A stretch of 33,479 nucleotides of DNA from Opitutia bacterium. Its GTDB lineage: Bacteria > Verrucomicrobiota > Verrucomicrobiia > Opitutales > T3Sed10-336. The notes under the pieces were generated by a model, which saw only the letters and a list, made by a program, of their open reading frames with translations, was not told the origin of the DNA and did no database searches. Below are positions 12,594 through 33,479 of the stretch, piece by piece; position 1 is the stretch's first letter, and each line of letters starts with the position of its first letter. Where the stretch lies: NCBI GenBank assembly GCA_050506795.1, contig JBJHCF010000050.1, forward strand, positions 1 to 33,479, read 5' to 3'. The position numbers and the translations under genes are program-made.

Positions 12594-12864
12594 GCTGCGC
12601 GGGAGCGCAGCCCTCGATGGGTGGAGCCCGGTTGATTGAGTCCGGTTGATTTCTGGAGGGCCATGCTCCCGCATGGCCGCCGGTTCGGGAGCGCGGGCCA
12701 TTGTGCCCGCAGCGGCTGCGCGGGAGCGCAGCTCTCCAGGGGTGGAGCAGCCTTCCATGGGGCGGGGTATCGTGCATCGGCGAATGGCAATTGGATGAGA
12801 GATTCTCGACCACGAATTACGCGAAATGCACGAGATTATGGCGGGCAGGATGCTCGCGTTCCCA
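12594..12864. repeat. GGAG-type REP cluster between convergent genes, including a composite element at 12654-12738
   Basis: Hairpin units at 12594-12615, 12654-12679 and 12713-12738. GCGGGC-N-GCCCGC type units at about 12687-12710 and 12841-12864. Confidence 0.8.
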
Positions 12865-31550: not shown

Positions 31551-33089
31551 ATGAAAGACGCGGTTTACTTCAGTATCTCTACATCTCCCATTTCGCGCTG
31601 GTTCGCGAGGATCAACAAGCGGCACGCTCGGCAATGTCCAGGTCACTTCCTCTGGATTTGCCTGTTTATATTCGGCACCTCCGTTACGGCGGCCAATGAG
31701 AATCGTATCCGGCCTTACGAGGCGAACCCGTTTTTCTGGCAATATCAGGGTGAGCCGGTATTGCTGCTGGGAGGGAGCCGGGAGGACAACTTGTTCAATC
31801 ATCCCGAAGGACTGGAGGATCATCTTGATGAAATCGCCGAGGCAGGTGGCAATTACGTGCGCAACACGATGTCCGACAGGAACCCGGAGAACCGCTACGC
31901 ATTCGCGCAGACGGATGACGGACTTTTCGACCTGACCGAATGGGACGCCGAGTATTGGGAGCGCTTCGACGGCTTCCTGAACATGTGTCATGAACGTAAC
32001 ATAATCGTGCAGATCGAGATCTGGGACCCCTGGGACTTATTCGCCTCGGAAGCACCCCTCGGATTCGGTCCGGAGAACAGGGGCTGGGAAGTTCACCCAT
32101 TTAACCCGCGGAATAATATTAACTACACAGCGGAAGAGTCAGGCCTGGCCGAAGTGATCGACTACTATTCCGGCTCAGGACCGAGTGATCATGCCTTCTT
32201 TCATACCGTGCCGGCCATGGAGGACAATGAAGTGGTCCGGCAATACCAGGAAGCCTTCGTCAACCGTCTACTGGACTTCAGCCTGAAGTATCCCAATGTG
32301 CTCTACTGCATGAATAATGAGATCGGTGAGGACCCTGAATGGGGGCGACACTGGGCCCGGTTCATCCGGGAACGGGCCGATGCGGAAGGTGTGGACGTTT
32401 ACCTCGCCGACATGCGGCGAAACGTCAACTTCAATTCAGCAGAACAGATCGCGTTGCTTCACGACGATGCGCACTATGACTATTTTGAGATATCGCAAAA
32501 CAACGTCAACACCGGCCAGAACCACTTCGACCAGATCCAGAGCATTCGGAGCCGTGTGCTGGAAAACCCCAAACCGCTGAACAATGTCAAGATCTACGGC
32601 GGCGAAGGCCACGCTTGGACCGGCGGTGAACTCGAAGCGACACGACGGATGTGGCGAAATGTCATTGGCGGCCTGGCCAGTTCACGGTTCCATCGGCCCG
32701 GCCCGGAGCACCAACCTTTTGGCATCGGCGCCAACGAGCTTGCCCTGGCCCACATCCGCAATGTCCGAACGGTCATGGAGGAAGTAGGCTGGCCGGGCAT
32801 CGAACCAAACCTCGACTTTGTTGAACATGTTTCCGATACGACGGATGCCGTGCAGACACCAACCGATGCAGAGGTCTCCATCGCGGCCGCCAAAGCACCG
32901 GATGGCCGAAGCGCCGTGATATTCGTAACTCATGGAGGCCATTTCCGTGTAGACCTCGACCATCTTCAGGAAGGTATACAAGCGGAATGGTTTAACCCCT
33001 TGACAGCTGAGCGCCGGGCAGCCGAAACCGGCAGCAGTGGAAATTTTCATCCCCCGTCTCAGGAAAACTGGGTACTCATTCTGAAATAG
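31551..33089 (+). CDS. Exported uncharacterised protein, probable clan GH-A-like TIM barrel with C-terminal putative collagen-binding-type domain
   Basis: Hydrophobic leader. Motifs RPYEANPFFWQYQGEPVLLLGG, GGNYVR, FDL..W...YWERF, IVQIEIWD, YPNVLYCMNNE and C-terminal AEWFNP. Start uncertain. Confidence 0.6.
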   Translation: MKDAVYFSISTSPISRWFARINKRHARQCPGHFLWICLFIFGTSVTAANENRIRPYEANPFFWQYQGEPVLLLGGSREDNLFNHPEGLEDHLDEIAEAGGNYVRNTMSDRNPENRYAFAQTDDGLFDLTEWDAEYWERFDGFLNMCHERNIIVQIEIWDPWDLFASEAPLGFGPENRGWEVHPFNPRNNINYTAEESGLAEVIDYYSGSGPSDHAFFHTVPAMEDNEVVRQYQEAFVNRLLDFSLKYPNVLYCMNNEIGEDPEWGRHWARFIRERADAEGVDVYLADMRRNVNFNSAEQIALLHDDAHYDYFEISQNNVNTGQNHFDQIQSIRSRVLENPKPLNNVKIYGGEGHAWTGGELEATRRMWRNVIGGLASSRFHRPGPEHQPFGIGANELALAHIRNVRTVMEEVGWPGIEPNLDFVEHVSDTTDAVQTPTDAEVSIAAAKAPDGRSAVIFVTHGGHFRVDLDHLQEGIQAEWFNPLTAERRAAETGSSGNFHPPSQENWVLILK

Positions 33090-33190: not shown

Positions 33191-33262
33191 AGGGCGGCGC
33201 TCCCGCGCCGCCGGTGCGGGCAGGATGGCCGCGCCCCCCGGCCATGCGGGAGCATGACCCTC
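33191..33262. repeat. Composite REP element, the insertion target of the intron
   Basis: Colinear with the reverse complement of 12654-12738. Ends GGCCATGC-GGGA-GCATGACC-CTC directly before the intron start. Confidence 0.8.
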
Positions 33263-33479
33263 GTGTGCCCGGCATGGGCATGAACTAGTCATATGAAAAG
33301 AAATGATCGGGAAAAGTGGCAACAACCGTAGTGAAAGACAAGGCGGGTACCGTGAGGGACTCAGCGTGAAAGAAGTCTGTAGCAAAGGCACGACCGTAGG
33401 AACACGAACAGGCAGAGAGGCCGTGTGTGGGCGATGAGAGTACGAGAAGCTACGAAATCCAACCGCCACCGAAAGCCAC
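33263..33479 (+). mobile_element. Group II intron, class IIC, 5' part of domain I (truncated by window end)
   Basis: Starts GTGTGCCCGGCATGGG (GUGYG boundary, IIC-type). CC-GTGA-GG GNRA stem at 33350-33357, AGGAACACGAAC at 33398-33409, GAGGC at 33417-33421 and the GATGAG...AAATC segment follow the order of the Oceanobacillus iheyensis IIC intron as I recall it. Located immediately after a DNA hairpin. Confidence 0.88.

Follow-up and report, generated by a model that had tools for sequence, protein, structure and literature searches.

Class C (IIC) group II introns choose their targets by a DNA hairpin together with short base pairings, as passages of three papers describe (PMC12584367, PMC4424553, PMC1702495). 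An excerpt of a 2025 paper has these introns recognizing DNA hairpins and inserting downstream of rho-independent terminators (PMC12584367), and an excerpt of the 2006 paper on B.h.I1 gives the targets as “terminator motifs ... or other inverted repeats” (PMC1702495). A section of a 2015 review names three target habits of bacterial group II introns: homing sites, terminators, and attC sites (PMC4424553). The IIC-attC introns, S.ma.I2 and relatives, appear in that section as a class C sublineage that traded terminators for another repeated imperfect hairpin. High-copy repetitive extragenic palindromes (REPs) also serve as harmless landing sites for the mobile elements ISPpu9, ISPpu10, and IS1397. 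As for group II introns, a table of Tobes and Pareja (2006) scores them as REP-associated in P. putida KT2440, with the entry “Group II intron 2/9” (PMC1525189).

How does the locus studied here compare with these systems? The window, meaning the whole stretch of DNA that was analyzed, is 33,479 nucleotides long and is the complete contig C50 of a draft Opitutia genome (G000; 82 contigs, 4.94 Mb). We consider it very probable (roughly 85%) that it ends in the 5' part of a recently active, multi-copy class C retroelement that follows a rule of hairpin, IBS1, and C, and that accumulates in repeats. This family resembles the terminator-seeking IIC introns (B.h.I1, GsI-IIC, and E. rectale IIC) in its endonuclease-less reverse transcriptase (RT) with domain X, its length of ~1.9 kb, its 5' GUGUG, the CGC of its domain V, its 3-base EBS1/IBS1 pairing, a stem directly before the site, and its sense orientation downstream of a gene. 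It differs from them in that the stems are not terminators (the repeat continues CTCCAGGGGAA) and come in high-copy families. The IIC-attC introns offer a likeness of another kind, in that a class C lineage uses a repeated hairpin other than a terminator, but the targets here are dispersed intergenic palindromes and not cassette arrays; no integron signal was seen, and the flanks of the intron are a composite repeat. The family also shares with ISPpu9, ISPpu10, and IS1397 the use of high-copy extragenic palindromes as harmless landing sites, but those elements are DNA transposons. Compared with the P. putida table entry, which gives a 22% association and no mechanism, the present data add an exact position, an EBS1 pairing, and replication across genomes. 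The sequence-only reading of this DNA had left open whether such targeting had been described. That table already records an association of a group II intron with REPs, and a full-text literature search of incomplete coverage returned no description of IIC introns targeting REPs. The machinery is that of an ordinary IIC intron; as far as we have seen, the kind of target, the guides matched from host to host, and the footprints described below are apparently undescribed. Table 1 gives the layout of the locus.

Table 1. Coordinates, strand, and basis of the features at the intron junction and at the empty repeat copy in the window
Feature	Position	Strand	Basis or remark
512-aa ORF, upstream gene	31551..33089	+	ORF list
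Repeat unit A hairpin GGCGGCGC-TCCC-GCGCCGCC	33193..33212	+	CAGG before hairpin, variant of usual CTGGAG
Repeat unit M, degenerate copy of GCGGGCA-GGA-TGCCCGC	33216..33233	+	Sequence read and genome count
Repeat unit B hairpin GGCCATGC-GGGA-GCATGACC	33240..33259	+	Stem directly 5' of insertion site
IBS1 CTC, final three 5' exon bases	33260..33262	+	Covaries with EBS1 loop in relatives
Group II intron, probably class C, first 217 bases (GTGTG, part of domain I)	33263..33479	+	Ends at contig end
EBS1 GAG, loop of domain I hairpin, complementary to CTC	33444..33446	+	Covariation
Uninterrupted composite repeat (empty site)	12653..12738	-	CTC = 12658-12656, CAG = 12655-12653

The window from 33263 onward reads GTGTGCCCGG, with the 5' end GTGTG, and the Rfam model group-II-D1D4-3 (RF02001) matches 33346-33479 with 44.8 bits (gathering score 32, E 4.3e-06), a match that covers model positions 1-130 of 170 and is truncated by the end of the window. 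A search of the whole genome with this model gave no match, probably a loss at the first filter. The 5' end agrees with the sequence-only reading, which had placed a IIC-type 5' end at 33263, three bases past a hairpin. The uninterrupted homolog that it had named, 12654-12738 on the minus strand, likewise reads ...GGCCATGCGGGAGCATGGCC CTC CAG AAATC (3' part ...GCATGGCC CTC CAG), and the insertion point is CTC^C as claimed. The composite repeat in front of the intron starts at about 33191, and its copy of unit B has one C/A mismatch in the stem. A U-tract after the hairpin had been reported absent, and there is indeed no run of T; the commonest continuation is CTCCAGGG, found in 35 of the 100 copies of unit B in the genome. 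The intron starts 173 bases 3' of the 512-aa ORF's stop codon and has the same orientation, so read-through transcription could express it.

The contig ends at base 217 of the intron, and its end has no k-mer overlap (20 to 127 bases) with any other contig. The rest of the intron, including domains V and VI and the 3' end, is therefore described from other members of the family. Contig C62 opens, on the opposite strand, with a 99% identical copy of the 5' end; the flanks of C50 and C62 are 93.7% alike over 189 bases, including 72 bases of exon. The corresponding 3' parts are found where C3 begins and where C8 ends, and a third lies at C10:53968-54129. The C3 part holds 295 codons of an open RT/maturase frame up to the stop, with a GIIM domain, followed by domains V and VI at 905-981. 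The assembly lacks the ~0.7 kb of intron that would separate the 217 bases on C50 from the 981 on C3. The 5' part on C50 presumably continues into one of the 3' parts seen on C3 or C8, since the two halves have the same best relatives and the element on C10 has both ends, 1920 bases apart. The RT/maturase and domains V and VI for which the sequence-only reading had proposed to look downstream lie at the contig ends of C3 and C8; C50 itself stops too early to display them.

The 3' ends on C3 and C8 read ...CCCCATCCGAT and that on C10 reads CCCAATCCGAT; CAG comes next in all three, as had been predicted for the 3' exon, and the sequences then diverge. An intron remnant in genome G026 ends ...CCATCCGAT|CTATTCC, and the 3' exons of 40 loci vary after their first C, so CAG belongs to the exon and not to the intron. 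The 3' exon on C8, CAGGGAAGAGCCGATGCGATT, is the usual continuation of the repeat, and the 3' exon on C3 likewise continues the repeat flank. On C8 and C3, the flank thus resumes the repeat on the far side of the intron, which was one of the checks that the sequence-only reading had set.

Two other copies were set aside. The best relative of the 5' part (94%), on contig C179 of genome G002, proved to be an internally deleted copy that runs into a transporter gene, and the copy on contig C32 of G026 is a 385-base remnant. The 5' end of the C10 element, at C10:52212, has diverged (86% identical to that of C50). The element as a whole (C10:52210-54129, locus L003/L142) spans 1920 bases, as a complete intron would, but is an intron “shell”: of the 5' end it retains ~90 bases and of the 3' end ~162, including the last 25 codons of the intron-encoded protein (IEP). 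Its interior is AT-richer DNA that carries, on the other strand, a gene for a 422-aa ferric-reductase-like protein (Ferric_reduct, FAD_binding_8, NAD_binding_1); the best match to this protein in 14 related genomes is 46% identical.

Which class of intron is this? A comparison of the C3 protein with one genome per species gave 128 relatives, of which the best 80 were taken on; these come mostly from Verrucomicrobiota, Kiritimatiellia, Lentisphaerae, and Acidobacteriota metagenome-assembled genomes (MAGs). Both intron ends were found at 30 of the 80 loci, 1879-1946 bases apart, which gives a full length of 1.88-1.95 kb. The closest full-length relative (locus L062) matches RF02001 over the whole model with 97.6 bits and RF01998 with 40.8. 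Its IEP has 422 aa, with RVT_1 at 74-280, GIIM at 296-373, and no endonuclease domain, and it scores 387.6 bits as a group II intron RT/maturase in NCBIfam. The partial IEP on C3 (295 aa) also has RVT_1 and GIIM and ends 50 residues past GIIM. Among solved structures, the L062 protein is closest to the GsI-IIC RT (6ar1, 1.3e-115) and the IIC maturase 7uim (7.5e-90), then 5hhl and 5hhj; LtrA (IIA, 9.6e-37) and 6me0 (IIB, 6.2e-28) come far behind the IIC enzymes. The domain V model RF00029 matches C3:905-981 and C8:130644-130720 with 40.9 bits (cut-off 40).

An alignment of 26 3' ends supports 29 base pairs, 11 of them with compensatory changes. Domain V, with 14 pairs, contains a bulge of two bases and an invariant CGC, a triplet typical of IIC introns. 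In domain VI there are 11 pairs, with compensatory changes, and the unpaired A lies seven bases short of the end. The intron ends ...CCGAT on C3, C8, and C10, and GAT or AAT closes all 26 aligned relatives. The assignment to group IIC made in the sequence-only reading thus fits the endonuclease-less RT with domain X, the 3-base EBS1, and the stem before IBS1; membership of the clade is supported, not proven, as it depends on the best matches to solved proteins and on this anatomy.

The guide of the intron was located by covariation. The first 420 bases of 38 related introns were aligned with the copies in G000, G002, and G009, and the columns were screened for complementarity to the exon. Three consecutive columns are complementary to exon positions -1, -2, and -3 in 87, 92, and 90% of 39 sequences; the next best columns reach 61-88% and are simply invariant. 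The three columns form the loop of a small hairpin, GCGTGC-xxx-AGAACGC, which reads GAG in the window. Pairing over all three positions is found in 32 of the 40 listed sequences, with five types of pair (CTC/GAG, CTA/TAG, CCA/TGG, TTA/TAA, and TGC/GCA), and is incomplete in the other eight (L071, L073, L079, L080, L086, L096, L117, and a degenerate G002 copy). Exon position -4 has no covarying column (best 0.63). The three covarying positions are the short EBS1/IBS1 of IIC introns.

The 3' exon begins with C, the IBS3 position, at 39 of 40 loci. A stem of at least six pairs ends 0-2 bases before IBS1 at 30 of the 37 loci with 45 upstream bases (at least seven pairs in 26), directly at IBS1 in 23 of the 30; by this simple test, the remaining seven loci have no stem of six pairs. 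The stems of the 37 loci are unrelated in sequence and have several loop sequences, many of them GGA, GGGA, or GGAG. At least four T occur in the nine bases past the stem at only 5 of 26 reconstituted sites, so most of these stems are not intrinsic terminators. This also answers a check named beforehand, namely whether other copies would sit mostly behind ordinary terminators; they do not.

In genome G000, the hairpin before the intron belongs to a composite palindromic repeat. The unit B hairpin has 100 copies genome-wide (at most three substitutions); CTC comes next in 84 of them and CTCCAG in 66, so the position CTC^CAG is conserved within the repeat and is no flank met by chance. The continuation CTCCAGGG often extends as CAGGGGAAnnGCCGATGCGATT, and copies with CTCCAG often go on GGGAAnnGCCGATGCGATT. 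Unit A has 85 copies (at most two substitutions, both strands), and reverse unit A has 103 at up to three substitutions, with CTC after 77 of them. The unit M consensus has 67 copies at up to two substitutions and 98 at up to three. Units A, M, and B form ~200 clusters genome-wide. Units A and B are inverted relatives, and the composite is bracketed by CTGGAG...CTCCAG. The two units can pair as one long REPIN-like hairpin (-27.7 kcal/mol, z -1.95), although GC-rich shuffles also fold well.

Is this repeat a REP? The sequence-only reading had called the hairpin the last unit of a composite REP. The repeat does have the habit of REPs and BIMEs, with short high-copy palindromes in composite arrays of alternating orientation, and the high-copy composite palindrome stands; membership of the REP family in the strict sense finds no support. 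None of the 16 Y1_Tnp matches in the genome convincingly links a RAYT to the repeat. The only one adjoining it is a 151-aa IS200-type gene (NF033573, 77.5 bits) between the halves of a unit A, and the other 15 have no clear repeat copy within 1.5 kb; a weak match to unit M that fits both strands lies ~650 bases from the Y1_Tnp match at C35:43344. A 318-aa RAYT-like protein scores 66.4 against an NCBIfam cut-off of 80. The conserved repeat end is CTGGAG/CTCCAG, and the GTAG or CGTC tag, which part of one paper names for REPs (PMC3733652), is absent from it. With no RAYT tied to the repeat and an end that is CTGGAG in place of GTAG or CGTC, “REP-like” is the safer term.

Two further features of these repeats were seen. 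At C36:49756-50508 (locus L030), an insert of ~750 bases that carries the 151-aa IS200-type transposase gene splits a unit A hairpin; it is bordered by inverted GTCCC..GGGAC and CCCGGCGTT..AACGCCGGG hairpins. A second hairpin repeat, GGCAACG-GCGGAG-CGTTGCC followed by CTCC, has at least 16 copies (for example, C74:640-666) and is built like unit B.

Where in the genome does the intron reside? The 5' junctions on C50 and C62 lie behind unit B and that on C10 lies behind unit M. A genome-wide search with CTCGTGTGCC, which joins CTC to the first seven intron bases, gave seven matches, where ~9 would be expected by chance for a 10-mer. Five of the seven (C50, C62, C3:177719, C37, and C74) have a hairpin in front of them, in every case a repeated palindrome. 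The junctions at C3:177719 and C37 follow unit M. The one on C74 follows a hairpin from a different repeat-like family, the consensus form of which is present 16 times; this hairpin is closely similar to the GGCAACG-GCGGAG-CGTTGCC repeat and carries a 10-base remnant of the intron 5' end. Together with C10, six of six 5' junctions in this genome lie behind repeated palindromes.

Three of these sites (C3:177719, C37, and C74) keep only 7-10 intron bases and then pass into the repeat, its flank, or the 3' region of the intron. The opposite end of the intron has left similar traces. Its last ten bases, CCCATCCGAT, occur 20 times in the genome; two occurrences are the intron ends on C3 and C8, two lie exactly at CTC^CAG of a unit B (C7) and of a reverse unit A (C34), and the other 16 are in unrelated sequence. 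The occurrences on C7 and C34 came from the genome-wide search and are called footprints because they lie inside repeats. The short remnants probably arose by deletions between short repeated bases, a judgment made by eye and not computed.

The same habit, with other repeats, is seen in four more genomes. In G002, from the same genus, reverse unit A with CTC has 28 copies, and two abut intron 5' ends. In G009, from another genus, four of five intron 5' ends follow an unrelated 43-base double hairpin that ends in CTA and has 15 copies. A complete Luteolibacter chromosome has 46 copies of a 25-base motif ending in CTC, which precedes two of three introns; the third copy (L081) is behind a different hairpin with a run of A before it. 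In a Verrucomicrobiae MAG, all three introns, with EBS1 TAA, follow a hairpin plus TTA that has 65 copies, often in inverted pairs. Controls with the reversed pattern gave 0 in every one of the four genomes. With G000 included, at least five genomes have their stems in repeat families that number 15 to 100 copies. Collecting copies and their 5' exons had been put forward as a check, and this is its outcome.

Does the intron prefer these repeats, or does it merely find most of its sites there? We counted as a compatible site any perfect GC-rich stem of at least seven pairs with a loop of 3-8 bases that ends 0-1 bases before CTCC. Genome G000 has 214 such sites: 58 in unit B, 43 in unit A, 15 in unit M, and 98 elsewhere. 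The repeat family thus holds 116 of 214 (~54%), and with further repeat families among the other 98 the share of repeats is well over half. With ~54% of hairpin-plus-CTCC sites in the repeat family, the ordinary IIC rule may be all that the intron obeys. By our own arithmetic, a plain hairpin + CTC|C rule would place all six junctions in repeats in roughly 3 to 15% of cases. What the data establish is the residence of the intron; they stop short of showing that it reads any feature special to the repeat beyond hairpin, IBS1, and IBS3. Of the earlier proposal that this lineage uses abundant intergenic REPs as safe landing sites, residence in repeats is upheld, and a preference beyond availability is not.

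The anatomy of the intron, the covariation of EBS1, the distribution of copies, and the footprints are observations; the mechanism that would connect them is drawn from homology to studied IIC introns. Together with its RT/maturase, the intron RNA would reverse-splice into DNA at a site set by a GC-rich stem-loop, by the three bases that follow (IBS1, which pairs with the EBS1 loop of three bases), and by a C that opens the 3' exon. The composite repeat, made of units A, M, and B and ending CTC^CAG, would supply most such sites in G000, and for that reason the intron would accumulate in intergenic repeats, where insertion is likely to be harmless. Old copies would later be lost by deletions, with short footprints left behind.

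A stronger form of target choice is that the lineage is specialized on REP-like repeats, reading the GGGA loop, the 3' CAG, or a REPIN-type hairpin, with EBS1 tuned to the repeat of each host. In its favor, EBS1 in five genomes matches the three bases after the local high-copy hairpin, as GAG/CTC in G000 and Luteolibacter and as TAA/TTA in the Verrucomicrobiae MAG (the evidence from G009 is the exon, CTA, by itself); many target loops are GGA, GGGA, or GGAG; and a second intron family, 33% identical, occupies the same CTC^CAG site. We nevertheless regard specialization as unlikely, if a serious contender, because the stems at 37 loci are unrelated and have several loop sequences, because availability alone predicts a majority of repeat sites, and because no column covaries with exon position -4. 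Two further explanations concern the junction itself. If the repeat traveled with the intron, by co-mobilization of the 5' exon or duplication of a larger unit, the shared flank would say nothing about target choice, and the likeness of the C50 and C62 flanks, which extends over 72 bases of exon, fits this. That likeness stops at the outer edge of the repeat, however, and the two flanks differ by indels, as independent copies do. Different units (B, M, reverse A, and another family) precede different copies, ~100 repeat copies are empty and only a handful occupied, and the 3' flanks also continue the repeat, all of which makes joint travel very improbable.

The assembly could also have wrongly joined a repeat to an intron fragment at the contig end, and two facts lend themselves to this: the contig ends in repeated DNA, and no listed Logan contig of the run most like the source spans 33220-33258, so the connection between gene, repeat, and intron depends on the assembly of the window itself. 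The run in question, probably the source, is a metagenome that holds 0.93 of the sampled words (in contigs, not reads); four of its contigs leave the repeat at 33262 and go on CAG..., like empty copies. Among RNA runs, none has more than 0.05 of the sampled words. Against an artifact, the same junction occurs on C62, equivalent junctions lie inside long contigs of other genomes, and a full-length second intron has both of its repeat junctions inside a single contig, C9. In the salt-lake and soda-lake runs, moreover, contigs match only the intron part, beginning at 33260 with other sequence before it, so homology breaks at the intron boundary. An artifact is therefore the least probable of these readings, slightly behind even joint travel. 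The reading that remains by far the best is an ordinary IIC intron that accumulates where compatible hairpins are most abundant.

What would such a habit mean? Landing in dispersed REP-like repeats, if true, adds a fourth habit to homing sites, terminators, and attC, and it would account for the many copies that a retroelement without an endonuclease can attain while leaving its host unharmed. We tentatively suggest, with rather less than even confidence, that palindromic repeats of high copy number form a third major kind of landing site, so far unlisted, for group II introns that seek hairpins; that a retunable 3-base guide matches the repeat of each host to the introns resident there; that at least two lineages share one site in G000; and that the footprints of insertion and deletion diversify the repeats. 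The footprints show that such introns may also reshape the repeats in which they reside, which bears on how REP-like families diversify. The five EBS1/IBS1 combinations are natural pairs of guide and target that could be tested in mobility assays. There is also a practical consequence, in that such introns break short-read assemblies exactly at repeats, as in C50.

The second full-length group II intron in G000 (C9:55762-57637, minus strand, locus L014) occupies the same repeat site within one contig. Its junctions read reverse unit A + CTC | GTGCGAAT ... CCCCTAT | CAGGGGAACGGCCGATGCGATT. It is 1876 bases long and encodes a 449-aa endonuclease-less IEP that is 33% identical to that of the first family; its domain V has AGC, no Rfam D1-D4 model matches it, and the best solved relative of its protein is the GsI-IIC RT (3.1e-72). 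The genome also holds pieces of other group II families, namely a 3' fragment at C14:87842-88223, an RT in two frames at C31:2522-3476, and identical 3' ends at C7:1-125 and C79:1-125; the 3' exons on C14, C7, and C79 do not continue the composite repeat. Contig C18 has three copies of unit B, one on the plus strand at 67363 and two at reverse-complement coordinates 61023 and 11758. Two of these three repeats read CTC GTGCGAA CGG(C/T)CGATGCG, in which the first seven bases of a C9-type intron are fused to the 3' flank of the repeat, and each looks like a deletion footprint. The third reads CTC GTG GGGAACGG and may be a footprint of either family or the result of two substitutions.
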